Below are positions 24,068 to 56,888 of a stretch of DNA of 64,000 nucleotides, piece by piece. Source of the DNA: an uncultured Synergistaceae bacterium (GTDB lineage: Bacteria > Synergistota > Synergistia > Synergistales > 79-D21); assembly GCA_964521575.1 (NCBI GenBank), contig CAZFSR010000002.1:28740-92739 (forward strand). Reading direction: 5' to 3'. The notes beneath the pieces were generated by a model. It did not search any database and was not told the origin of the DNA. It saw only the letters and a program-made list of their open reading frames with translations. The first letter of the stretch is position 1. Every line of letters begins with the position of its first letter. Made by a program: the position numbers and the translations under genes.

Positions 24068-24465
24068 CGCCGCATTCGTTAACTTTGTTTTCTGGGCCGA
24101 TCTCAGACAGCTGGCCCTGAAGCATAGCTATTTAGAACCTGTCAAGCTGAAAGACACTGTTTCGCTCCTGCTCTTGCTCAACTTGAGGCGTTCTTCCTCA
24201 TTGATATGTGGACACTTAAAAGGCCGCCATCTCTTTTTCAGAGACAGCGGCCTATGGGAGTCGTGCCCACAACGGTCACGAAGACAATATAACGGCCCTG
24301 GCAAGGGGGTTACAGCCAGGGTCTTCGAAAGTAAGAGGAGGTGAACCGTCTCTGTTCTTCTCCTTGATGGTCATAGGATACCCCTCTTCGATTTACCCCA
24401 CCTCGGCAAAAACCCATTCCAGACTAGGCGGTTTTACTGAACTCGTTCCCTCCCTGTGTCCAATC

Positions 24466-24488
24466 TAGGGGATTCCCTGATAGACAAA
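24466..24488 (+). repeat. island-boundary motif copy 1: TAGGGGATTCCCTGATAGACAAA
   Basis: It is a perfect 23-bp match to 48054-48076 in the same orientation. A 20/21 match occurs inverted at 39282-39302. Confidence 0.9.
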
Positions 24489-24597
24489 CTCTATTCGTTC
24501 GGGTTTGATAAAGGTTAAGTTTCAAATTTTTCAAATCTAGGCCTTTCCCCTACATTACCCCTTCATCAGGCATTGACAAAATCCATATCCGAGGAGC

Positions 24598-27165
24598 GTG
24601 GGATATTTGAAGACGTCAAGCACCCCTCTCCACACCATACTGGATAACGAAATTTTTAGCATCGTTGACGAGTACCAAATTCCTGAAAGAGAACCACATT
24701 TCGAGCAAATACCCACTGCTCTCCACCCACTAGTAAGAACAGCACTTGAAGGAGCTTTCCCCTCTGGAATCTATTCCCACCAAGCGAAAGGAATTGATTT
24801 ATTACTGGGCAACAAGGACATTTGCCTGGCAACCCCAACTGCTTCCGGAAAAAGCCTTGTTTTCATGTCTTATGCTGCCGATTTATTGCTTCGGACACCT
24901 AAGGCAAAGGTCTTGGCATTATACCCCGCGAAAGCCCTAATTCAGGACCAGCTGAAAAAATGGAAAACGTTCCTAACCCCGTTAAATTTGCCGGTCGGCT
25001 ATATTGACGGAGCGGTAAGATCCCCCGAAAGGGCTGCGATACTTCGCAGGTCAAACGTGGTCCTAATGACGCCTGATGTTGCCCACGCCTGGATTATGAG
25101 CAACCTATCCAACCAAGATGTGGCCTCTTTTCTATCCGCAGTTTCTCTTTTAATCCTTGATGAAGCTCATGTTTACGATGGCGTATTTGGAACAAATATG
25201 GCTTTTTTTCTCCGACGGTTGGAGTGCGTTTCACCATTGAGAAACATTGTGTCGAGCACTGCCACGATAGGAGATCCTGTCGGTTTCATTGAGAAGCTGA
25301 CAGGCAGGATCCCCATACTCATTTCAAAAAACGACGATGGGGCTCCCTCTTCTGCAAAAACGATATTTTTATCACGGTGTTCAGACAGTTCAATAGATAA
25401 TTTTGTCAATTTAATTACATCTCTGCCAAGCCTTAAGCTTGGCCCCTTCATCGCTTTTGCCGATTCAAGGAAGATGGTCGAACATATTGTCGCCATTGCT
25501 AAAAGAAACTGTATTCCTGAAAGAGATCCTCTCCAGAACATTGGAACGACGGAAGATACGTTAATAGATGACCCTCTAGAAGATAAAGATTCTTTTTTCG
25601 AAAGCTTGGGGATATTGCCCTATAGGGCAGGCTATGAGGAAGATGACCGAAATGAAATTCAAAGAGCGCTAGCTGAAGGACGGCTTTCCGGTGTGGTTTC
25701 CACGAGTGCTCTTGAGTTAGGCCTCGATATAGGAGAGATTTCAATAGTCGTGCTTATGGGTGTGCCTCCATCGGTTAAGGCCTTTTGGCAGCGGTTTGGT
25801 CGCGGAGGAAGGAAAGGGAATGGCTATTGCATTTTGCTTGACGACTGCAACGCAATAGAAGCAGACGGTTTATCTTCTTATCTGGACCGCACCCCTGAAC
25901 CTTGCTGGCTCTATCTCGAAAACCGATTTATTCAATATACACATGCCCTCTGCACCGCTTTGGAAACGATTGAATATCCAAACTATAACCAGAAACCATT
26001 AGAGACTCTCCCGGAAGACTTCCTCCACTTTATGAATAACGAAATCCTCCCTAGGGAGACGATACCCAACGATCTGTACCCTTTGAAGCAAAGGGCTGTA
26101 AATGGTCCACATTACGAGTTCCCATTAAGGTCCGGAATTGAAAAGAACCTGTCCATTTCAGAAAATAGTGGGTATTCTATGACGCGGTTGGGGAACGTTT
26201 CGTTTTCCCAGGCTCTTCGAGAAGCCTATCCTGGAGCGATTTATTATTATATGGCATGCCCTTATCGTGTTGTTTTTTTCAATTACAGACTTGGCGAAAT
26301 AAAGGTAAAGAAAGAGAAGCGCTGGACGACCAAGCCAATACTCCAAAACATGGTTTTTCCGAAAATGGATAATGGCGTCCTCGCGCTTCGCAAATCCAAA
26401 AGCGGATTCTTGATAGAAGCAAACCTACAAGTCAGCGAGAGGATAATCGGTTTCACGGAACAGAGAGGTCCCAATTCTGCCTCGCATTTATATGAACAGG
26501 GCAACTTCTACAGCCAGCGTCCAATAACGAGATTTTTTGAAACGACCGGTGTCTGCTGGTTTTTCGATGACAGGAGATTCCAATCAGAACCGTTAGCGAA
26601 TTTAATCTTAAAGGCCTTTTGTTACATTTGCGGGATACAGGAGAGAGACCTGGGTTTCGGAACCTTCCAAGCTCGTTCATGCCAATTTTGGGATCAACCG
26701 ACTCACGGGCTTTGTATTTATGATGCCGTGAACGGAAGCCTTCGTTTAACCAAGCAGCTATTTGAAAAGTTTGAAGAAATCCTTGCAACACTCGACTTTG
26801 GCCACTTTTTGTTGGATGAAGTTGATGATGAGTTGCGCTATGCTGTCAAACTATTTAAGAACGAAATTTCAACAACAGGTATTATGGATGTAAACGATGG
26901 GATAATCCTCACACCTCCCGCTGAGAATGATTGGGTAACCGTGATTTGTCCTGGAGAAAAGGGAATGTACATTGACGGAAATAACGAGGAGGTCAAAGTT
27001 CTCGGATACCGCTTCACACCTAACGGAATGGTTTACCAGTTGGAGCCATCCGGAGATCTTACGAACTGGATAGTTAAGATCGCAAGCGTCGTCCCGCTAT
27101 ATGGGATAACGAGGGTTGAGAAGTACAACCTCAACACCGGGGAAACAGCCCCGGTTACACAATGA
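24598..27165 (+). CDS. SF2 DEAD/DEAH-box helicase with DUF1998-like C-terminal domain (MrfA/DrmB-like architecture)
   Basis: It has motif I ATPTASGKS, motif II LILDEAHVYDG, motif III SSTATIG and motif VI WQRFGRGGRKG. The downstream segment AFCYICGIQERDLGFGTF...GLCIYDAVNGSLRLTKQL resembles DUF1998 but lacks an obvious 4-Cys cluster, and ~130 extra C-terminal aa follow. The start is GTG after the RBS GAGGAG. Confidence 0.8.
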   Translation: MGYLKTSSTPLHTILDNEIFSIVDEYQIPEREPHFEQIPTALHPLVRTALEGAFPSGIYSHQAKGIDLLLGNKDICLATPTASGKSLVFMSYAADLLLRTPKAKVLALYPAKALIQDQLKKWKTFLTPLNLPVGYIDGAVRSPERAAILRRSNVVLMTPDVAHAWIMSNLSNQDVASFLSAVSLLILDEAHVYDGVFGTNMAFFLRRLECVSPLRNIVSSTATIGDPVGFIEKLTGRIPILISKNDDGAPSSAKTIFLSRCSDSSIDNFVNLITSLPSLKLGPFIAFADSRKMVEHIVAIAKRNCIPERDPLQNIGTTEDTLIDDPLEDKDSFFESLGILPYRAGYEEDDRNEIQRALAEGRLSGVVSTSALELGLDIGEISIVVLMGVPPSVKAFWQRFGRGGRKGNGYCILLDDCNAIEADGLSSYLDRTPEPCWLYLENRFIQYTHALCTALETIEYPNYNQKPLETLPEDFLHFMNNEILPRETIPNDLYPLKQRAVNGPHYEFPLRSGIEKNLSISENSGYSMTRLGNVSFSQALREAYPGAIYYYMACPYRVVFFNYRLGEIKVKKEKRWTTKPILQNMVFPKMDNGVLALRKSKSGFLIEANLQVSERIIGFTEQRGPNSASHLYEQGNFYSQRPITRFFETTGVCWFFDDRRFQSEPLANLILKAFCYICGIQERDLGFGTFQARSCQFWDQPTHGLCIYDAVNGSLRLTKQLFEKFEEILATLDFGHFLLDEVDDELRYAVKLFKNEISTTGIMDVNDGIILTPPAENDWVTVICPGEKGMYIDGNNEEVKVLGYRFTPNGMVYQLEPSGDLTNWIVKIASVVPLYGITRVEKYNLNTGETAPVTQ

Positions 27166-27362: not shown

Positions 27363-27932
27363 TTGGAATTCGTCCAACCGATTCGTGACAAAAAACAAAT
27401 CGAAGCCATAAAGAAGATACTGATGGCAAGCGAACTCCGAGACTATACACTTTTTGTCTTAGGAATAAACTCTGGATTACGAATCTCAGACCTTTTAAGA
27501 CTGTCCGTTGGCGACTGCCTAGATGAAAGAGGACGACTCCGGGATCGAATTACCATCCGTGAAATCAAGACCGGTAAAACAAAAGATTTTCCACTCGGGA
27601 AAAACGCTACGAAGGCCCTGAATGATTACCTACAAAAAACAAGTTTGACCACTTCGTCTCCACTTTTTCCGTCCAGGAAGGGCAGAAATACTGCTATTGG
27701 TAGAGTGCAAGCCTACAAAATCCTAAATGATGCTGCGTTGGCTGTAGGAATAAGGGAGAGGATTGGCACACACACATTGCGCAAAACTTTTGCTTACCAT
27801 GCCTATAAGGCTGGTTACGACCTGAGCATGATACAGAAACTGCTTAATCATTCCGCTCCATCTGTAACCCTACGCTATATCGGAATAACTCAGGACGAAA
27901 TGGACGGAGTCTACCTGAACCTGAACCTTTAG
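27363..27932 (+). CDS. minimal tyrosine recombinase (catalytic domain only, 189 aa)
   Basis: All catalytic contexts are present: GLRISDLL (R), IKTGKTK (K), HTLRKTF (HxxR), LNHS (H) and LRYIG (Y). Only ~30 aa precede the catalytic domain, so there is no SAM-like N-terminal DNA-binding domain. The start is TTG, 8 nt after AGGAGG. Confidence 0.8.
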   Translation: MEFVQPIRDKKQIEAIKKILMASELRDYTLFVLGINSGLRISDLLRLSVGDCLDERGRLRDRITIREIKTGKTKDFPLGKNATKALNDYLQKTSLTTSSPLFPSRKGRNTAIGRVQAYKILNDAALAVGIRERIGTHTLRKTFAYHAYKAGYDLSMIQKLLNHSAPSVTLRYIGITQDEMDGVYLNLNL

Positions 27933-28417: not shown

Positions 28418-29274
28418 ACCAGAAGAAAAGCTCTTGATTAGCTTCTTGAATTTTAAGGGGACCCATAGTAAGCAAACAACTTTTTGGAGCACCTAAAAAA
28501 TCTCCGCTGTCTATCCTCTAGATCCATTCGATAATTTTGGCAAATTACCCATGTAACTTCTCAAGTGTGGCGAACACGACCTCCAGAACCTTGAGGCTTC
28601 AGACAGTTCATAAGCCAAGCCGTCGGGCTAGCCTTACCAGATCCCCCTCTTCAAGGAACCAATCCTCTACTTCACGAGTTTTTTGCAAGAGGGGAAGCTG
28701 CTCTCGGAACTTCTTTCTTGATCACCCCATCAAGTTCACAGTGAGGGGCGTACGAACTGAACCCCCAGAGTAAACGCAAGGAATCCGTCCATCCAGTTTT
28801 TCCCCTCGCAGGCGAACCCTTTCCCGTCAACCCCACGGGAAAAAAGCCCCCCATCCTTGGCGTTTTTCGTTGTAGCAAACCGACGCAATATCCGGGCTAT
28901 CGGGTATTAACGCGTTTTTGCCAGACAAGTAACCGATAGCCTTTGGAGCCGCATGGCGACCGGGTTTGAAGCGTTTCGAAGGAGGCTAAAAGCCATTTTT
29001 CGTAGCGGCCCTCGAATTGCCGCTTTTCCGGTCGGATTTGGAGCTACCGCGGCCCCGGCCGACGCGAACCTGGCGTTCGAGCTCGGCCATGGCGTCGGGT
29101 GCCACAGGAAGTGGCACAAGAGCCTACATTTCCAGCGGTGAACGGCGATCTCCCCGTTGATTAGAGACATAATGTCGGGTTTCCGGTCATCTTGTCGGCT
29201 TCCCGGATACCGGACTTTTGGTGGAAATGTAATTGCTTTTAACTTGTAGTTTGCGCAACAGGAGCAATCAGGAC

Positions 29275-30770
29275 ATGTCAATCCTCATCCCCTCTTGCGA
29301 GGGGATGTAGCTCCGTGGCTTGCTCGGCACCGTTTCCGCTGGCTCGTTTCAATCCTCATCCCCTCTTGCGAGGGGATGTAGCGAACACCCGCTGGCTGAA
29401 ACTTTCTCGGCAATGGTGGTTTCAATCCTCATCCCCTCTTGCGAGGGGATGTAGCCCGGTCAACGGTCAAAAGGGCCTTTGCCGCAGGGGAGTTTCAATC
29501 CTCATCCCCTCTTGCGAGGGGATGTAGCTCCGAGGAAAACGAAGCAAAGCTCTTTGAACTGTACGGTTTCAATCCTCATCCCCTCTTGCGAGGGGATGTA
29601 GCCCCGAAGGAAAACGGACCGCCGCAGGGGCGATCCTGGTTTCAATCCTCATCCCCTCTTGCGAGGGGATGTAGCCACAGCACTACTCCACCGCTACGTT
29701 CGCGTACCAATGGTTTCAATCCTCATCCCCTCTTGCGAGGGGATGTAGCAACAATGGGGCAGGCCGTTTGTCTGACGTTGGCGGAGTTTCAATCCTCATC
29801 CCCTCTTGCGAGGGGATGTAGCTCCGAGGAAAACGAAGCAAAGCTCTTTGAACTGTACGGTTTCAATCCTCATCCCCTCTTGCGAGGGGATGTAGCCCCG
29901 AAGGAAAACGGACCGCCGCAGGGGCGATCCTGGTTTCAATCCTCATCCCCTCTTGCGAGGGGATGTAGCCACGGCTCAATCTTCATGGGCGGCCTCCAGC
30001 TTGGCGTTTCAATCCTCATCCCCTCTTGCGAGGGGATGTAGCGTACGGGTCGTACAGCCCGACCAGCCCCGTGCGGGGGTTTCAATCCTCATCCCCTCTT
30101 GCGAGGGGATGTAGCCGGAGCGGTCCTGCTTGGCCTGCTGGATGTGCTCGATGTTTCAATCCTCATCCCCTCTTGCGAGGGGATGTAACCCCGACAAATC
30201 GCCTGCCGTATCGAGTCCTGCGGGGTTTCAATCCTCATCCCCTCTTGCGAGGGGATGTAGCGTATGCGACCGTGGCGTTCTGCTTGACCGTGGAGAAGTT
30301 TCAATCCTCATCCCCTCTTGCGAGGGGATGTAGCTCGGGGTTGACCTGACGCGCTTGTCGATGACGTGCACGTTTCAATCCTCATCCCCTCTTGCGAGGG
30401 GATGTAGCGTCGTTGACGGCCCGTCCGCCGACGGCACCCGCGTGGTTTCAATCCTCATCCCCTCTTGCGAGGGGATGTAGCGGGCAGGTGTACCGTTGAA
30501 CCTGCCTCGGACCGAAGGTTTCAATCCTCATCCCCTCTTGCGAGGGGATGTAGCCCGAGCAGTTTGAGGATGTTCGGCACCGTCACGCCGGTTTCAATCC
30601 TCATCCCCTCTTGCGAGGGGATGTAGCCGTCGCCGTCGGTCGAGGCCTTCCCGGCCCCGCCGTTTCAATCCTCATCCCCTCTTGCGAGGGGATGTAGCTG
30701 ATTGATGACGAGGATACAAGTTTGCTATTGAAGGTTTCAATCCTCATCCCCTCTTGCGAGGGGATGTAGC
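29275..30770 (-). CRISPR. CRISPR array with 21 repeats of 37 bp and 20 spacers of 34-37 bp; type I-C associated
   Basis: The plus-strand repeat is GTTTCAATCCTCATCCCCTCTTGCGAGGGGATGTAGC. The minus sense ends in ATTGAAAC, so transcription is co-directional with the cas genes from the leader at 30771-30951. Repeat starts are 29275 (degenerate first 3 nt), 29346, 29419, 29492, 29566, 29639, 29713, 29786, 29860, 29933, 30006, 30079, 30153 (G->A variant), 30225, 30298, 30372, 30445, 30518, 30591, 30662 and 30734. Confidence 0.97.
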
Positions 30771-36912: not shown

Positions 36913-39198
36913 CTAGACAGGGCCTAAAGAGCGAAGCTTCCGGACAAGGCCCAAGATGTCGACGTCATACTGGCCGCACCATTCGGCGACAGGAAAGTCA
37001 GGGGCGATCTGGACAATCAATCCTGCGTCCAGGGCTTCCTGGTAGGCGTGACGGCTCATGTTCACGACGTAAGGCTGCATTTTCCGCAACAGGATGCGTG
37101 TAGGAGACTCGCAGTATCTTGCTTCCGCAAGAAGGGTCCTGGCGTTTTGATCATAGGGAACAAGCACCTCAAACCGTTCTTCGTCGATGAGGTGAAATTT
37201 TTCTGCAATCGCGTCAAAGCGAAGGTAAGATGGGCTCCGGTCCTCCTGGATCTTTCGGGGGTCCTGTTCCACCCCTTCCCGGAGCCGCTGGAAATATTCT
37301 CTCTGGGCGTCCAGGTCCTCCGGGTTGGGATAACGGCGGAGGAGCGCCATTGCACTGTCGGTCCCGACCTTGTATTCCCCCTTCGGGGCCAGACCGTCTT
37401 CCAAGCAAAAGAGGACCACCTCTCCCAGGCAATCCAGTTTTCCCTCCCTGTTGCAGCGCCCCCCCACCTGGATGATGCGATCGAGGGGGCCCACGGCCCT
37501 CATGACAAACGGAAAGTCGAGGTCGACTCCGGCTTCCACAACCTGCGTGGAGACCAGGAGGCAAGGGAGCCCTTTGACCAGGCGCTCCCGCACCGCGGCC
37601 AACACCTTGCTGCGATGCGCGCCGCACAGGACGGTCGAGAGCATGAAGATCTCCCCGGGGTCAAATCCCCGGGCTTCGGCCGTTTCCCGGGCATATTCGG
37701 CTGCCCGCAGGGCGTCCTTCTTCGAGTTGAAGACAACCAGGCTCCTGGGGCGGGCCATGGCTTCGTCAATCACCTCGGAAAGGGAAACCGGGGCAAGATC
37801 CTTCATCCGGGAATACCGGACCCGCGCCAGTTTTTGGAACAGCCTGGAAGGGGCGTCGATGATGTCGTGAACGGACCCTTTCGGGAACCCCGAAAACCGG
37901 ACGGAAAACTCCTCCAGGGCCGGCTGGGTGGCGGAGCAGAGGACGATGGTCGTGTTGAAGTGTTTCGAGAGCAAGTGGAGGACGTCGATGATCGTGTCCA
38001 TGTATTTCTGGGGGAGCGTCTGGACTTCGTCCAGGATGACCACGCTGTTGGCGATTCGGTGAAGCTTCCGGCACCTGCTGGGCCGGTTGCTCATCAGGCT
38101 TTCCAGGAGCTGGACGTTGGTGGTCACGACGATCGGCAGATCCCAATTTTCGCTGGCAAGAGACAGGCGTACGTCTTCTGGAGTCGTGACCTCTAACTCC
38201 CTGACTCCGGTCCCGCTGTGATGCTCCAGGACATTTTCCGAACCGAAAATCGAGCGGTAGACCTTGACGTTCTGTTCGACAATCGAGGTGTACGGAATGG
38301 CGGTGATGACCCGGCTCATTCCATGTTTTGCGGCATGCTTCAAGGCAAAGGCCATGGCACTCCTGGTCTTGCCTCCGCCGGTGGGAACGCAAAGCCGGTA
38401 GATTCCCACCGGTCCTTCGGCCTTGTCGAAGCAAGCCTCGTAGACCTCTTTCCGAACCTCGTTGACAGGACCTGTCTTCCCTGCGGCAATCTCGGCCTGA
38501 CTCATCACCAGCTTCTCAAACAAGTCGTGAATCCGGGATCCGGCAGAAGCCCGCAAGGCAGATTTTTGGGGGCTGCCAGCCCTTTCCGCGTCCAAAGCAT
38601 CGGCGTCGGCGAGGGCAGACAGGAGCATGCGCAAAAAAACGTCAAGGGGGCCGGCAGACCGCCTTGTTTCTGGCCGGAAGTACCGGTTCCAAAGCTTGAT
38701 TTCGGCGGATGCGGCATTTAACAGGGTTGTGGAAAGTAAGGGATTTTCAAAATGTGACGAAAACCGATCCAAGGCGAGTTTGATATCGGCATAGACAGTT
38801 CCATCCGTCTTTCGTTTTGCTAGGCGATCCTTGAACTCGGCTTTGGAATGGAGCCCCCCATGATGGGAAGCGGCTATCCATGCCAGAGCGGACAGACCCA
38901 TGTTCTTTTTTTCTGTCAGAAACATGCTCCCCGCCGAAGAATGGTCAGGACCATGATGGCGCCCGCCGGATTCTTTTGAACCGAAATCTTTTATGCAGCT
39001 GGCGATGTATTCCTGAAAAAGGTCGCCCAATTTCCCGATGTCATGCGAAATCCCGAGAACCCGTCCAGTCTTTTCGAGACCGAACGGGGCAAGAAATTCC
39101 GAGGCAAGATCAGCCACGCAGGATGCGTGTTCCTTGAAGTCTTCACAAATACTAAAATTCTGGTATGTCCTAACAGGAAATTTCCTATCTAGCCCCAA
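36913..39198 (-). CDS. cas3: CRISPR-associated helicase/nuclease Cas3 (HD + SF2 helicase)
   Basis: The HD domain (EHASCVADLASEF...GISHDIGKLGDLFQ, HHGPDHS, ASHHGG) is followed by helicase motifs (VPTGGGKT, VILDEVQ, SATQP, QVGGRCNREG). The open frame extends to TTG 39453. That extension is AT-rich, low complexity and contains the inverted island motif, so I prefer TTG 39198, which is preceded by GAGG. The start remains uncertain. Confidence 0.85.
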   Translation of the reverse strand: MGLDRKFPVRTYQNFSICEDFKEHASCVADLASEFLAPFGLEKTGRVLGISHDIGKLGDLFQEYIASCIKDFGSKESGGRHHGPDHSSAGSMFLTEKKNMGLSALAWIAASHHGGLHSKAEFKDRLAKRKTDGTVYADIKLALDRFSSHFENPLLSTTLLNAASAEIKLWNRYFRPETRRSAGPLDVFLRMLLSALADADALDAERAGSPQKSALRASAGSRIHDLFEKLVMSQAEIAAGKTGPVNEVRKEVYEACFDKAEGPVGIYRLCVPTGGGKTRSAMAFALKHAAKHGMSRVITAIPYTSIVEQNVKVYRSIFGSENVLEHHSGTGVRELEVTTPEDVRLSLASENWDLPIVVTTNVQLLESLMSNRPSRCRKLHRIANSVVILDEVQTLPQKYMDTIIDVLHLLSKHFNTTIVLCSATQPALEEFSVRFSGFPKGSVHDIIDAPSRLFQKLARVRYSRMKDLAPVSLSEVIDEAMARPRSLVVFNSKKDALRAAEYARETAEARGFDPGEIFMLSTVLCGAHRSKVLAAVRERLVKGLPCLLVSTQVVEAGVDLDFPFVMRAVGPLDRIIQVGGRCNREGKLDCLGEVVLFCLEDGLAPKGEYKVGTDSAMALLRRYPNPEDLDAQREYFQRLREGVEQDPRKIQEDRSPSYLRFDAIAEKFHLIDEERFEVLVPYDQNARTLLAEARYCESPTRILLRKMQPYVVNMSRHAYQEALDAGLIVQIAPDFPVAEWCGQYDVDILGLVRKLRSLGPV

Positions 39199-39281
39199 CG
39201 AAAAGACCTCCGAAATAAATAGTCCCGCTCCAATAGGGGAGACCCCCCTCCCTGGAGGAGTAAACAACCAAAAAAATAAAA

Positions 39282-39302
39282 TGTCTATCAGGGAAACCCC
39301 TA
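39282..39302 (-). repeat. island-boundary motif copy 2 (inverted): TAGGGGTTTCCCTGATAGACA
   Basis: The reverse complement of 39282-39302 matches copies 1 and 3 at 20 of 21 positions. It lies ~85 bp upstream of the preferred cas3 start. Confidence 0.85.
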
Positions 39303-39532
39303 TTTTTCGATTTGAAAAGGGAGATAATGAGAATGTAAATTGTCGTTGGCGATATGATTTTGATTTTTTACGACGACAACATAAGTCGGTGAGGATAAGA
39401 ATCGGCTGGCTCAAGTGTCTCGAGCCAGCCGATTCTAGGAAGTATTTTTTCAAGTATTATGAAAAGTCAGTTTTTCGCAGGCAATTCTCGGTTCGCCACT
39501 GGAAGGGCAGAGGCAAGATGGATCGGATTGAA

Positions 39533-40021
39533 TTACAAGATAGGGGATTCCTCTTCTTTTTCTTCAGGATTTCTGCAAAACAATCCTGTCCTGAGCTTTT
39601 TTCTTGTGAGGATATCCAACAGTACACCCGAAAATTTACTTTCGAGGCAGCTCATCAAAACTTCCTGAAACAGTTCCTCGTCTTCCGTAGGCTCACCGCA
39701 AACGAGATGCCAATTCCCGCCGCGGTCACACACCTCGTTTTCTGCTCCGAAATGGCCGATTTCGATAACGCGAGCTAGCGGCGCATAATCTGGCATGGGC
39801 TTCAGCGTTCCCTGCAACGCGTCTTCCAGTGAGATCCAGGGAATCCGAAGCTCGAGGCAAGTGGCAACCTCCCCGATCTCCTCCGTGTCCAGGAGGACGG
39901 GCGCGATCACATAGCATTCCCTGACGACAATACCCTCGTCACTGATCTCCTTTAGCCATTCCGAACTGCCGTTGCACGTTCTGGCCGTGAATTCCTCCAG
40001 GGTTTCACGGTGCGTTCTCAT
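39533..40021 (-). CDS. hypothetical protein (paralog of 40046..40444)
   Basis: It has ATG with the RBS GGGAGGAATC and is 162 aa. It shares LE.F..RTC.G, .R.PW....DA, RVIE and VCG blocks with the upstream gene. I do not recognise a family. Confidence 0.55.
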   Translation of the reverse strand: MRTHRETLEEFTARTCNGSSEWLKEISDEGIVVRECYVIAPVLLDTEEIGEVATCLELRIPWISLEDALQGTLKPMPDYAPLARVIEIGHFGAENEVCDRGGNWHLVCGEPTEDEELFQEVLMSCLESKFSGVLLDILTRKKLRTGLFCRNPEEKEEESPIL

Positions 40022-45149: not shown

Positions 45150-46286
45150 TCAAGCGGCGATCGAATTGCCATTCCTCAGCCGGTTTAGAGGACTGTATTT
45201 GTCATGGTCTGCGATTATCGGAGCGCCTTTGTAGTTCGCGTAGCGTTGCGCCATTGCGGGAGTTTTGTGCCCCAGAAAGGCCTGTAGCCGATTCTGGTTA
45301 TACTTCGTGTCCTCGTAATAGGCCATTGCGGCGTAGTGCCTTATCCCGTAAGGCCTTATGCTCTCGGTCATGTCCTTGCAGTAATCGTGAAGCCGTCGGT
45401 ACCAGGTATTGCCCGACATGGGCTTCCCTTTAGCCGTGCAGAAAAGCGGTGCTCCAGGAGGAATTCTCTCTGCTTTCCTCTTGGCAAGCCAGCTCTTCAA
45501 GGTTTTGACCATCTCCCTTGAAAGTGGAAGGGCCCTCGAGCATCGGTTCTTTGTGTCATCGGCGCTTAGGTGGACACAAGGATTTTTCGCCGCAAAATCC
45601 AGGTCCGCTGGCACCACTTTGAGGGCTTCTCCCGGCCTGATGCCCGTGTCGATTTGGAACTGGAGAAGAACGAGATCTCGAAAGCCTTCGAAAGCGTCCC
45701 TATTCTTTTCCTTTTGCATTCTTTCAAGGAGTTTGTCGATCTGTTCATCCTTGATGTTGACGATTCGACCCTCATCGTACCTCTTGGATCTTCCAGCAAT
45801 CGGGTTTCGCTTCAAGACTGCCAGATGATCCTTATATTTTTCCTCTTGCTCCGCCCCCTCCGGCACGGTAAGAAAATTAAAAAAAGCCCGCAGGTAAACG
45901 AGTCTAAGGTTGAACGTAGCCGGAGCGATATTCTGACTGAAGTGCGCATCGAGACATTCCTTGAGGCATTTTGGGTTTACTGCCTGAGGGTAGCGCCGAA
46001 AAAAAAGTTCCACGGTTTTCTCATAGTCGGACTGGGTCCTTGACGAAATGGGCTTATTCCAGGGAACACTCGTCTTCCACTGGATGAACGCGCTGAGCCA
46101 TATCCGCCAGACTTGAGTCTGTCCGTTTCCCGCGTTCGCTATGAGATTCGGTGTTGCACTGGACAGCCTCTTAGCTCTTATCGAGCTAACGTTAGTCGGT
46201 GCCTTCCTCTTTGCCCTGAGAAGAGAATTGGCTTTCCCAGTTGAGGTCTTCAGTTGCCCGCCAACTGCCGACGACGCCTTCTTCAT
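45150..46286 (-). CDS. tyrosine-type site-specific integrase
   Basis: It has GIRPGEALKV, IRPYGIRHYAAMAYY and LGHKTPAMAQRYANY. The start is ATG 46286, 9 nt after GGAGGG. Confidence 0.85.
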   Translation of the reverse strand: MKKASSAVGGQLKTSTGKANSLLRAKRKAPTNVSSIRAKRLSSATPNLIANAGNGQTQVWRIWLSAFIQWKTSVPWNKPISSRTQSDYEKTVELFFRRYPQAVNPKCLKECLDAHFSQNIAPATFNLRLVYLRAFFNFLTVPEGAEQEEKYKDHLAVLKRNPIAGRSKRYDEGRIVNIKDEQIDKLLERMQKEKNRDAFEGFRDLVLLQFQIDTGIRPGEALKVVPADLDFAAKNPCVHLSADDTKNRCSRALPLSREMVKTLKSWLAKRKAERIPPGAPLFCTAKGKPMSGNTWYRRLHDYCKDMTESIRPYGIRHYAAMAYYEDTKYNQNRLQAFLGHKTPAMAQRYANYKGAPIIADHDKYSPLNRLRNGNSIAA

Positions 46287-46428
46287 GCGGAACATCCCTC
46301 CAAAAATTTTCCCGCACAGTTACTCTCGTCCGGGGGAGAAGCACTGTCCATTGCTCCTCTTTTTTTCCATGAATGTCCCTCCCTTCCAAAATAGGATTTA
46401 CTTCCGAATACAAAGAACCCCGTAAGGC

Positions 46429-46984: not shown

Positions 46985-47884
46985 TCAAGTATGTTTTATA
47001 TTTGCCTTTCCCGCCTTCCTGACCCTGTGCCGCTCCGGAACCAGGGCCTGCACGGGGGAAGCCGTGCTGTGGACCTTTCGCAGGTCCTGGTCCGTCAGCG
47101 CCACATACCGTCTCGTCATCGCCATGTCCTCGTGCCCCAGGGTCCGCTGCAGGGCGAATGCGTTCCCCCCGTGCCGGAGGTAGTGCAACGCGAACGAATG
47201 CCTGAGGTCGTAGGGTCTAATTTTCATCCCCAGCCGCTGGCCGTACCCGGCCAGCCTTCGGGACCATTCGTCCTTGAGGGGCAGCCCTGAGGCTGAACAG
47301 AAAAGGGGAACCGATTCGCCCCATTGCGGGTGCCGAACGCGTATTGTCTCAGCGATAGCCTGAACGGTGACGTTGGAAAGCGGAAGCGTCCTGGAGACGC
47401 GCGTCTTGGCGCTTTCGGCCGGGATGGTGACCTGGCAGTATTTCAGGTCGACCTGGCGGGTTTGGAGTGAAAGCGCCTCCCCAGGGCGAATCCCCGTATC
47501 GAGGATCAGCAGGATCAGGGCGTAGTCCCGCAGCCCCGCAAATGTGGTCCGGTCCGGGAGGGAAAGGAGCTTCGTCAGGCTGTCGGCAGGGACGTTGACG
47601 ATCCTGGGCGGGGTTTTCCGCCGGTGCAGGCGGCCCGTGGGATCCGCTCCCAGGTATCCCTCGTCGACGCACCAACGGAAAAAGCATCGGAGATAAACCA
47701 GCCTCAGGTTGTAGGTATAGGGCGAAACCTTTTCCGAAAGGTATTCCAGGACGCACGATCGGAGAGCGGGGTTGGCAAGTCCGGAGGGATACTGGTGAAA
47801 GAATTTACTAATGTGTTTTTGGTAATCTACCAGCGTTCGGGAACTCAGCCCCTCCCCCTTTTTGTAGAGGAGGAAGTGTTCCAT
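46985..47884 (-). CDS. tyrosine-type site-specific integrase (tRNA-adjacent)
   Basis: The N-terminal SAM-like domain (LSSRTLVDYQKHISKFF) is followed by GIRPGEALSL, IRPYDLRHSFALHYL and LGHEDMAMTRRYV. It is a paralog of the pseudogene at 1-831. Confidence 0.85.
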   Translation of the reverse strand: MEHFLLYKKGEGLSSRTLVDYQKHISKFFHQYPSGLANPALRSCVLEYLSEKVSPYTYNLRLVYLRCFFRWCVDEGYLGADPTGRLHRRKTPPRIVNVPADSLTKLLSLPDRTTFAGLRDYALILLILDTGIRPGEALSLQTRQVDLKYCQVTIPAESAKTRVSRTLPLSNVTVQAIAETIRVRHPQWGESVPLFCSASGLPLKDEWSRRLAGYGQRLGMKIRPYDLRHSFALHYLRHGGNAFALQRTLGHEDMAMTRRYVALTDQDLRKVHSTASPVQALVPERHRVRKAGKANIKHT

Positions 47885-48053
47885 GGCGACAGTCCAGCTG
47901 ACCGAAAAACCTGATGGCTGCGGGAACGGGAGGACGGACAAGCGAAAAACCCCCTTACATTTCCGCAAAGGGGTTTTTGAGGGGTTTTTCCAGTCCGCTG
48001 GGGAGGGCCAATTTCAACCCCAGCGGATTCGCCTTCGAAAACGGGTTAATAAA

Positions 48054-48076
48054 TAGGGGATTCCCTGATAGACAAA
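48054..48076 (+). repeat. island-boundary motif copy 3: TAGGGGATTCCCTGATAGACAAA
   Basis: It is a perfect match to 24466-24488 and lies 30 bp beyond the 3' end of tRNA-Leu. Confidence 0.9.
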
Positions 48077-48105
48077 AGGGCGCAAACCCTTGAAAATATT
48101 AAAGG

Positions 48106-48192
48106 TGGTGCCGGAGGGGGGACTCGAACCCCCACAGACCCGAGGCCCGGCGGATTTTGAGTCCGCTGCGTCTACCATTCCGCCACTCCGGC
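48106..48192 (-). tRNA. tRNA-Leu (anticodon CAA), CCA encoded
   Basis: The reverse complement reads GCCGGAGTGGCGGAATGGTAGACGCAGCGGACTCAAAATCCGCCGGGCCTCGGGTCTGTGGGGGTTCGAGTCCCCCCCTCCGGCACCA. It has a 7-bp acceptor stem, anticodon loop CTCAAAA, a long variable arm and a GGTTCGAGTCC T-loop. Confidence 0.95.
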
Positions 48193-48315
48193 AGCGGCAT
48201 TTGTATAGCATACCACGGGCCGGTTGTCCAGAAATCGATTCCACGAGCCGTACGAGAGATGGTTTTTCCGGAAAACCGGGATAAGGCGGGGCAAATAGAG
48301 GCAGGTGAGAGTCGG

Positions 48316-48753
48316 ATGGAGGAGTTGCAGGGGTCAAATGGCTGTTTCGTCTGCGACAGGACGGGAGAGAACCCGAGATCTCTGGGGCTGAAGATCTTTT
48401 GGGACGACGGCGAAAGGCGATCGGTGATTCCCTTTGCCCCGGAGGCTTCCTGGTGCGGTTTCGAGGGTTTCGTCCATGGAGGCATCCTGACGGCCATCTG
48501 CGATGATGCTATGGCATGGGCGGCCCGTAAGGAAACCGGGGCCTGGAGCGTCACGGCAAACCTTTCGGTCCGCTTTTTGCGGAGCGTTAAGGCGGGATCC
48601 TCCTACGAGGCTAGGGGGAGCCTGGCGAGGCAGGATGGAAAGAAGTTCCACACCCAGGCCGTGATACACGACAGCGCAGGAAAGCTTTGTGTGGAGGCGA
48701 AGGCGGTTTTCGTCGAGGTCTCGGAAGAGCGGCTTTTCGGGAAAAAAGGGTAA
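48316..48753 (+). CDS. PaaI/hotdog-fold thioesterase family protein
   Basis: It has GFVHGGILTAICDDAMAWA and the beta-sheet tail typical of 4HBT/PaaI thioesterases. Confidence 0.7.
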   Translation: MEELQGSNGCFVCDRTGENPRSLGLKIFWDDGERRSVIPFAPEASWCGFEGFVHGGILTAICDDAMAWAARKETGAWSVTANLSVRFLRSVKAGSSYEARGSLARQDGKKFHTQAVIHDSAGKLCVEAKAVFVEVSEERLFGKKG

Positions 48754-56651: not shown

Positions 56652-56888
56652 CAAAAACCCCTCCAATCGAAATCGTGAAGCTGAAACCTGGTTTTCGCCC
56701 GGCCCCACTGAAAGCACAAAAAAACTCCTACCGCTTCCAAGCCGCGCGGTAGGAGTCATTAGCCCTTCACGAGCATTCCCTGGGGGGACCCCATCCCCCA
56801 AACCAGTCGTAATCTATCAGATTCTTTCCGAATACTCAAGGGGGGTGCACCAATCGCCTCCGGCCAGGGAATAAACTTGTCTCGTAAT

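Follow-up and report, generated by a model that had tools for sequence, protein, structure and literature searches.

A 21-nucleotide motif as a probable regulator-controlled promoter element of cas3 and other genes in an uncultured Synergistales bacterium

Promoters of cas genes are controlled by transcription regulators in several bacteria. The regulators reportedly include Fnr, which acts at cas3 of Citrobacter rodentium and further Enterobacteriaceae (PMC12669028), BaeR together with H-NS at cas promoters of Acinetobacter baumannii (PMC12625773), and LrhA at those of Escherichia coli (PMC12968389). Near-identical promoters that are reused before unrelated genes have been described as putative mobile promoters (Nijveen, Matus-Garcia, and van Passel, PMC3575422). 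Here, we analyzed a stretch of 64,000 nucleotides (hereafter, the window) from the genome of an uncultured Synergistaceae bacterium of the order Synergistales (GenBank assembly GCA_964521575.1, contig CAZFSR010000002.1, positions 28,740–92,739 of the forward strand). The window contains three copies of a 21-nucleotide motif, one of which, at 39282–39302 on the minus strand, precedes the cas3 gene of a type I-C CRISPR-Cas operon. We propose that the motif is probably a composite promoter element, in which a 15-bp near-palindrome recognized by a dimeric transcription regulator would be joined to the −35-like hexamer TAGACA. To our knowledge, the regulation of CRISPR-Cas systems has been described for few phyla, and Synergistota is not among them.

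A search of the window allowing up to three mismatches identified exactly three sites, at 24466–24486 (plus strand), 39282–39302 (minus strand), and 48054–48074 (plus strand), which are called c1, c2, and c3, respectively. The reverse complement of 39282–39302 is TAGGGGTTTCCCTGATAGACA. It differs from c1 and c3, which are identical to each other, by a single T in place of A at motif position 7, and 100 dinucleotide-preserving shuffles of the window contained no match to the 21-mer. The inverted copy with 20 of 21 matching bases, which had been noticed in the initial annotation of the window, is thus confirmed. When the three copies are aligned together with their flanks, the similarity ends two to three bases beyond the 21-mer. 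The source assembly as a whole (2.3 Mb, G000, in which the window corresponds to positions 28740–92739 of contig C2) contains seven copies at up to three mismatches and no match to a reversed control motif. A diverged eighth copy is located beside a second tRNA-Leu-like sequence (G000:C2:19131–19220). A weight-matrix scan of the same assembly recovered about fifteen recognizable sites, the weaker of which form a graded series. Matches at up to three mismatches were present in all eight searched genomes of relatives from the same genus, and none at up to two mismatches were found in 52 genomes from other genera of the order. Relatives are labeled G001–G006 below, with C for contigs and L for loci or metagenome contigs. 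Exact copies are also present on seven metagenome contigs. A search for the palindrome alone with two mismatches was uninformative, since it gave 163 matches that were mostly in coding sequences.

The near-palindrome is of the type TCAGGGA-W-TCCCTGA, or in its general form T[C/A][A/G]GGGA-W-TCCC[T/C][G/T]A, and has a 7-1-7 layout with a single central base. Over 25 sites, base pairs 1/15, 4/12, and 5/11 are complementary in 24–25 cases and pair 7/9 in 18. The six final bases of the motif, TAGACA (a five-of-six match to TTGACA) or the variant TTGACC, resemble a −35 hexamer, and the string GAT(A/T)GACA is conserved in most sites. A −10-like hexamer, matching TATAAT in at least four of six positions, follows the motif at a distance of 16–18 nucleotides in 19 of 22 independent sites. 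These sites represent five genomes and a single metagenome contig, with a look-alike from chromosomal tRNA-Leu trailers left out. With AT-rich DNA from this genome as a conservative background, where such hexamers have a frequency of 12.6%, the binomial p value is 9e-15. The hexamers include TAGAAT, TACAAT, TATAAT, TAATAT, TTTAAT, TAAGAT, GATTAT, and TTTCAT, among others, and an A tract is located 5′ of many motif copies. The perfect palindrome TCAGGGAATCCCTGA at G000:C18:3563 has TAGAAT boxes 17 nucleotides away on both sides, and faces the gene of a 994-residue PD-(D/E)XK nuclease in one direction and that of a secreted protein in the other. When the −35 hexamer is set at positions −35 to −30, the dyad is centered at about −43. 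Because the dyad adjoins the −35 hexamer and the −10 boxes are weak in the best sites, the putative regulator may act as an activator. We infer both the initiation by RNA polymerase and the binding of a regulator to the dyad from these features of the sequence.

Copy c2 is most likely the promoter of the cas operon and includes a predicted regulator-binding site. It is located in a 335-nucleotide gap between the likely start of cas3 at 39198 and the stop codon, at 39533, of a gene encoding a 162-residue protein (39533–40021, minus strand), and falls within the part by which the longest cas3 open reading frame (36913–39453) extends 5′ of that start. On the minus strand, the stop codon at 39533 is followed by a 14-bp hairpin (39399–39435), an A tract, the 21-mer, a T-rich spacer, the −10-like hexamer TTTACT (39259–39264), the ribosome-binding site GGAGG (39207–39211), and a TTG codon at 39198 that is in frame with the HD domain of Cas3. 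The hairpin, which was read from the sequence and is not called as a terminator because of its weak T tract, sets the cas3 promoter apart from the genes upstream. Within the 21-mer, the near-palindromic 15-mer TAGGGGT-T-TCCCTGA (39288–39302) is the proposed regulator site, centered at about −43 from the predicted transcription start, and TAGACA (39282–39287) is the −35-like hexamer. The spacing between TAGACA and TTTACT is 17 nucleotides. Because TTTACT lacks A at position 2, a generic sigma-70 scan does not call it. The GGAGG sequence, also read by inspection, ends eight nucleotides before the TTG, and TTG 39198 is the most likely start codon of cas3. Transcription is predicted to start near 39252 on the minus strand and would drive cas3 together with the remaining genes of the type I-C operon cas3-cas5-cas8c-cas7-cas4-cas1-cas2, in which cas3 is the first gene, cas5 is cas5d, and cas8c is cas8c/Csd1. 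The cas3 gene (36913–39198) encodes 761 residues from the TTG, with Pfam HD, DEAD, and Cas3 C-terminal domains, and the array scan located the CRISPR array at 29419–30698.

The arrangement appears to be an ordinary succession of terminator, promoter, and gene, in which the long open reading frame from 39453 is, as read here, an artifact. Because the motif, the −10-like hexamer, GGAGG, and the in-frame TTG are located inside the 5′ extension of the cas3 reading frame, the extension is probably noncoding, as had been argued in the initial annotation, and the Pfam scans agree with the gene map given there. Copy c2 is inverted relative to the other two copies because cas3 is encoded on the minus strand. 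The cas3 leader also contains an operator-like sequence, GGGGGGTCTCCCCTA, at approximately 39233–39247 (read by eye), which resembles the TAGGCCTTTCCCCTA site near the helicase gene described below. The look-up of the exact protein sequence of the 162-residue neighbor and a contig search with Cas3 did not find another assembly of the locus.

The orientation of the motif is that of the next gene throughout the collected sites, which are intergenic, and the start of a co-oriented gene is located 20–265 nucleotides downstream of nearly all of them. The exceptions are copy c5, which has no such gene before a convergent integrase gene, and c3, which first meets a tRNA gene in antisense orientation. 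The distance from the motif to the gene is 111 nucleotides for the helicase gene behind c1 and 83 nucleotides, measured to TTG 39198, for cas3 behind c2. On contig C4, the copy at 157863 is located 119 nucleotides before an operon that encodes zinc-ribbon/SH3 membrane proteins and an L,D-transpeptidase according to Pfam. The site at C2:2773 and its orthologue in G005 precede an adhesin-E-like lipoprotein gene (Pfam) by 55 and 56 nucleotides, and the site at C15:20084 precedes an open reading frame of 176 residues by 21 nucleotides. Weaker sites are found in front of genes for DUF4160, an SDH-type protease, a zinc-ribbon protein, and ribosomal protein L25/Ctc, and in sister genomes the motif precedes genes for secreted proteins, a polysaccharide export protein, a CapD-like enzyme, and YfbU. 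A second cas3 gene, which is not orthologous to the one in the window (Cas3_HD, E = 3e-39), is preceded in G001 by TCAGGGTTTTCCTGATAGACA-17-TAAGAT at a distance of 257 nucleotides. The exact cas3-type variant with T at position 7 is located 244 nucleotides before a SIR2-like gene on the metagenome contig L078. The regions upstream of cas3 in G005 and G006 do not contain the motif, which is thus linked to cas3 repeatedly but not throughout the genus.

The tandem adhesin-E-like lipoprotein genes of the source assembly (G000:C2:1139–2793) each have their own variant of the motif, and the motif is kept before the single orthologue in G005. That the motif persists in front of orthologues and duplicates whose flanks have diverged is difficult to reconcile with a nonfunctional repeat family or a relic, derived for example from an arm of the tRNA-Leu terminator, in which the promoter-like context would be incidental. 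The idea of a relic draws on the look-alike TA[A/G]GGGAATCCCTGATTGTTA in the chromosomal tRNA-Leu trailers, which is the descending arm of a 14–16-bp terminator hairpin followed by a U run (folding energies of −21 to −23 kcal/mol, z of about −4). It also agrees with the Rfam search of the window and of seven motif loci, which returned a tRNA and a fluoride riboswitch and no family match for the motif. Nevertheless, the spacing to the −10-like hexamer and the gene-ward orientation of the sites are far from chance. Furthermore, copies outside the trailers, such as c2 and c4, have neither a partner arm nor an upstream gene to terminate, as judged by reading their flanks without folding them. We consider a relic scarcely plausible. 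We had also regarded the trailer look-alike as a conserved promoter, for which the island would have brought a replacement to serve the thioesterase gene, and rejected this idea when folding identified the look-alike as an arm of the terminator hairpin.

Several observations weigh against the interpretation of the motif as a regulated promoter. In the sites that match best, the candidate −10 hexamers (TTTGAT, TTTACT, TTCAAT, and TTTCAT) do not have A at position 2, and because of this the generic sigma-70 scan calls the 48054 copy only. The look-alike in the chromosomal trailers of the relatives is a terminator arm and not a promoter. The sites were gathered by their similarity to a consensus, which inflates their apparent invariance. 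Copies that are identical in 20–21 of 21 positions exceed the level usual for a regulon, which is partly explained by the common descent of mobile-element modules. The motif copies cluster within 0.1–6 kb of members of one tyrosine-recombinase family. The search for a cognate regulator did not identify one, and neither the 164-residue XRE protein of the island nor a 70-residue helix-turn-helix protein encoded on contig C17 has paralogues near other sites. The gene of the latter XRE-type protein is located 18 nucleotides after the perfect palindrome TAGGGGTTTCCCCTA (G000:C17:19707–19949), beside a primase-like gene. Its product is a candidate autoregulated repressor and the sole lead to a protein that may bind such sites.

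The gene behind c1 (24598–27165) encodes a helicase of the YprA/MrfA type with the Pfam domains DEAD and Helicase_C, and c1 would serve it in the way proposed for c2 and cas3. The −10-like hexamer of c1 is TTTGAT (24504–24509, plus strand), followed by the start of the helicase reading frame at 24598. A separate claim of the initial annotation, that the upstream regions of the helicase gene and cas3 have an operator in common, agrees with these findings. A second, weaker operator-like site, TAGGCCTTTCCCCTA, was read from the sequence between c1 and the helicase start (24538–24552, plus strand), and is comparable to the palindrome TAGGGGTTTCCCCTA at G000:C17:19707. The sequence TTTTCAAATC precedes it. 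On the other side of c1, a module of about 190 nucleotides (24268–24465, minus strand) points away from the motif and ends in a terminator-like hairpin of 12 bp with one compensatory change and a T run. The module is common to the C15 and G004 copies, and its equivalents were found at L006:1517–1720 (plus strand), L011:1300–1505 (minus strand), and G005:C21:3500–3630, the last of which is not accompanied by the motif. We regard the module as a candidate for a small RNA or a leader that derives from a mobile element. We rejected the possibility that the site at C2:9007 and c1 are reciprocal products of an inversion, as the breakpoints are located 11 nucleotides outside the motif on one side and one to three nucleotides outside it on the other.

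The initial annotation had treated the 21-mer as the boundary motif of a 23.6-kb island that extends from c1 to c3. Comparison with related genomes instead places the ends of the island at a 60-nucleotide direct repeat of the 3′ end of tRNA-Leu(CAA), 57.7 kb apart. The tRNA-Leu gene is located at 48106–48192 on the minus strand, and its 3′ 60 nucleotides (48106–48165) are repeated at G000:C2:19131–19190 with 59 of 60 bases identical, so that the insertion spans C2:19191–76844, or −9548 to 48105 in window numbering. In G001, G003, and G004, the gene of the 4HBT thioesterase and the next gene, tRNA-Leu, and a trailer of about 235 nucleotides are contiguous. Alignment to these relatives showed that the tRNA-Leu gene of the window has the ancestral 5′ flank and body and a foreign trailer. 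The sequence at C2:19131–19190 contains only the 3′ 60 nucleotides of the tRNA, with unrelated DNA before it and the ancestral trailer after it, and contig C2 contains no further tRNA fragments. The breaks of synteny with G001, G003, and G004 coincide with window position 48106 and with C2:19131–19190, and not with 24466 or 48054. Since the ends are tRNA-Leu repeats 57.7 kb apart, all three 21-mers are internal to the island. The 3′ repeat of the tRNA, the integrase gene by the intact tRNA, and the contiguity of the flanks in relatives identify the surrounding DNA, by comparison of sequences, as a tRNA-targeting integrative island. The metagenome contig L072 contains a homologous integrase gene (73% identical in translated comparison), the same arm, an exact motif, and tRNA-Leu next to the thioesterase gene of another species. 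The contig L073 contains the homologous far arm with a 58-nucleotide tRNA fragment and a trailer of the chromosomal type.

Several further features were observed in and around the island. The left three quarters of the window (1–48105), including modABC, XdhC, and an operon of the xanthine-dehydrogenase type, are located inside it. The molybdenum subunit encoded by this operon has no orthologue in the genus, and its best relative (40%) is found in an array of islands at tRNA-Leu in G004. In that array (G004:C2:594964–666305), tRNA-Leu(CAA) is followed by two 3′ fragments of the tRNA, of 55–57 nucleotides each, at about 625.3 and 666.2 kb, indicating tandem islands of approximately 30 and 41 kb at the same tRNA-Leu site. 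The distal trailer in G004 is rearranged and has a longer palindrome. The fluoride riboswitch of the window (56743–56807, minus strand, Rfam RF01734) scored 35.8 bits, against a gathering score of 34.

Copy c3 is located in the attP-derived arm of the island, with the tRNA-Leu repeat on one side, 32 nucleotides away, and the integrase gene on the other. It is followed by GAAAAT (48092–48097) at 17 nucleotides, and the generic scan calls TAGACA-17-GAAAAT promoter-like. The spacer of this promoter-like site contains the tRNA-Leu terminator hairpin AAGGGTTTGCGCCCTT (48076–48091, minus strand), which is shorter than the chromosomal one. The first co-oriented gene past c3 is that of the 4HBT-type thioesterase (48316–48753, plus strand), on the far side of the antisense tRNA. 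The role of c3 is uncertain; transcripts that start there would cross the tRNA gene in antisense and continue in the direction of the thioesterase gene. The 198-residue reading frame at 48157–48753, which contains a real 4HBT domain, overlaps tRNA-Leu, and its likely start is the ATG at 48316 (MEELQGSNG...), which is conserved in sister genomes.

The position of the motif within the island bears on the proposal that the 21-mer is the core or crossover site of a tyrosine recombinase, that c1 and c3 mark the ends of a 23.6-kb element, and that c2 permits the inversion of either half. This proposal could be derived from a perfect 23-bp direct repeat around a block of low GC content beside a tRNA and an integrase gene, and from the three tyrosine recombinases encoded between the copies. 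According to Pfam, one of these has the catalytic domain only (27363–27932), and two are full-length (45150–46295 and 46985–47968); between the cas set and the integrases are small genes of unknown function with weak Rep- and relaxase-like Pfam matches. Motif copies occur near paralogous integrases elsewhere, and homology between loci breaks a few bases from the edge of the motif; for example, c1 and c6 share 207 nucleotides that end at the motif. However, the signature of integration is the 60-nucleotide tRNA-Leu repeat, and both arms of the island recur at tRNA-Leu in other organisms. The 23-bp repeat, once read as an island repeat, has 22 of 23 bases in common with a third perfect copy of the motif, on contig C4, and its identity thus reflects the conservation of the motif itself. 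A 7-1-7 dyad leaves no room for an overlap region of 6–8 bp, and the breakpoints between related copies are located a few bases outside the motif and not inside it. Moreover, integrases that are merely 42–51% identical would all need one core site. Several of the many promoter-like sites precede genes outside mobile DNA, such as those of L25/Ctc, a polysaccharide export protein, and an AddB-like nuclease. The prediction of inversion, which the initial annotation had based on the inverted copy, is not supported, as the orientation of c2 follows that of its downstream gene cas3 and no feature of the sequence requires an inversion. The inverted partners of c2 are 14.8 and 8.8 kb away, and a test for fimS- or inverton-type switches found no inverted pair within about 1 kb at any site, except for the self-overlapping C18 palindrome. 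A role of the 21-mer as a recombinase site is very unlikely.

The distance and orientation of the motif relative to the integrase genes also vary, the distance from 21 nucleotides to more than 5 kb on either side of the genes, which speaks against a recombination site. The tyrosine integrase at the tRNA-proximal end of the island (46985–47884, minus strand), which adjoins the intact tRNA-Leu, has eight further homologues in the source assembly, namely six intact paralogues of 42–47% identity, a pseudogene (43%), and a 381-residue integrase (38%), and others in sister genomes. The motif is located 170 nucleotides upstream of this gene, 126 nucleotides past the stop codon of the integrase gene at C2:7790–8881, 570 nucleotides past the C15 integrase gene, 21 nucleotides past one in G004, and 1–5 kb from others. 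It is antiparallel to the integrase gene in five pairs of the source assembly and parallel in G004 (L035). The pseudogene of this family is located at 34–897 of the window (G000:C2:28773–29636) and has one internal TAG and one TAA. We considered whether pairs of motif copies form direct repeats that flank segments with integrase genes (C2:2773…9007 and C15:12420…20084). The C15 pair was rejected because repeats of about 500 nucleotides mark the ends of the C15 island, to which the motif copies are internal, and the C2 pair because C2:2773 is part of a tandemly duplicated gene-promoter unit. The repeats of about 500 nucleotides (G000:C15:11017–11515, C15:26386–26868, and C4:150295–150792) begin just after tRNA-Cys and have many copies in G001–G006, which are 90–96% identical across the genus and have no match in Rfam. 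Arrays of partial copies, consisting of the 3′ 100–200 nucleotides, are present at G000:C4:127–140 kb and G004:C1:709–752 kb. The repeat looks like a possible integration hot spot in an unrecognized gene.

The association with integrases could also mean that the motif belongs to a portable promoter module of one family of integrase-bearing elements, which would be a working promoter, and not part of a host regulon under selection. Its spread and the near-identity of its copies would then result from the movement of elements and from homologous exchange at the conserved sequence, through which new cargo, namely defense genes, would come to stand behind it time and again. The source assembly and five metagenome contigs have in common a unit composed of the motif, about 125 conserved nucleotides, and a convergent integrase gene, and the sequence upstream of this unit is of three different kinds. 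The cargo between the motif and the integrase gene varies, and can be absent or consist of the 176-residue reading frame, YfbU, or DUF4160 with two further reading frames. Five of the approximately fifteen sites in the source assembly are located within 5.6 kb of a paralogous integrase gene, and such zones make up about 4% of the genome. The reuse of promoters before unrelated genes is documented (PMC3575422). Conversely, several sites precede ordinary genes with no integrase gene nearby, the cas3 and helicase copies match the integrase-linked module in the 21-mer only, and the weaker sites form a graded series as in a regulon. We regard the portable module as a minor but real possibility. The stretch of about 125 nucleotides in this unit is noncoding, separates the motif from the 3′ end of the convergent tyrosine integrase gene (G000:C2:8882–9027 and L073–L077), and may be an antisense or 3′-untranslated-region element of the integrase. 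On the far side of the motif, about 190 nucleotides are common to c1, c6, and the G004 locus L011.

Returning to the interpretation of the motif as a regulated promoter element, we conclude from the comparison of loci that its association with integrases probably reflects promoters of mobile-element cargo, and not attachment sites. We speculate, with considerable doubt, that a family of small integrase elements in this genus has a slot for cargo genes that is capped by the 21-mer as a promoter. The fixed operator-promoter would be located close to the 3′ end of a convergent tyrosine-recombinase gene, and varying defense genes (the cas3 operon and the SIR2-like, YfbU, DUF4160, and helicase genes) would be brought behind it by recombination within the conserved sequence or beside it. 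If so, a single regulator would turn on a set of horizontally acquired defenses.

If the motif is a regulated promoter element, one predicted regulator would govern the type I-C operon, a stand-alone repair or defense helicase, other defense-type genes, and surface proteins. The analysis also corrects the map of the region, which now includes a 57.7-kb tRNA-Leu island with the operon of the xanthine-dehydrogenase family and the molybdate genes, and a cas3 gene whose start is shortened to TTG 39198. A perfect short direct repeat by a tRNA and an integrase gene is not necessarily an attachment site. Islands with a tyrosine integrase that target tRNA genes reportedly follow a general pattern, reviewed by Williams in 2002. 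The island described here resembles them in that it has a 60-nucleotide repeat of the tRNA-Leu 3′ end, that the tRNA beside the integrase gene is intact, and that the distal fragment is followed by the ancestral trailer. This likeness concerns the 57.7-kb island and not the 21-mer, which is located inside the island and in its arm.

As in putative mobile promoters, genes that are unrelated, and frequently located within mobile DNA or close to it, have near-identical upstream sequences. In contrast to the copied fragments of about 100 nucleotides or more in mobile promoters, only 21 nucleotides are in common here, the weaker variants are graded, and the dyad is indicative of a site for a regulator. 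In class II activator promoters, the CRP/FNR site is centered near −41.5, and the lambda cI site at PRM near −42. The motif resembles them in that the dyad adjoins the −35 hexamer with its center at about −43, and in that the best sites have weak −10 boxes, as would be expected of promoters that depend on an activator. The half-site and the 7-1-7 spacing differ from the 5-6-5 arrangement of CRP/FNR. We know of no Fnr, BaeR, H-NS, or LrhA site that matches TCAGGGA-W-TCCCTGA. Regulator-controlled cas3 promoters are already known, and the promoter described here would be a further case, in an unstudied phylum and with a site sequence of its own. As the systems with Fnr, BaeR and H-NS, and LrhA are reported, the likeness consists in a palindromic site upstream of or overlapping the −35 hexamer before cas3, through which CRISPR-Cas would be tied to a wider regulon. 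Those systems belong to Proteobacteria, whereas the promoter proposed here was recognized from sequence, in uncultured Synergistales.

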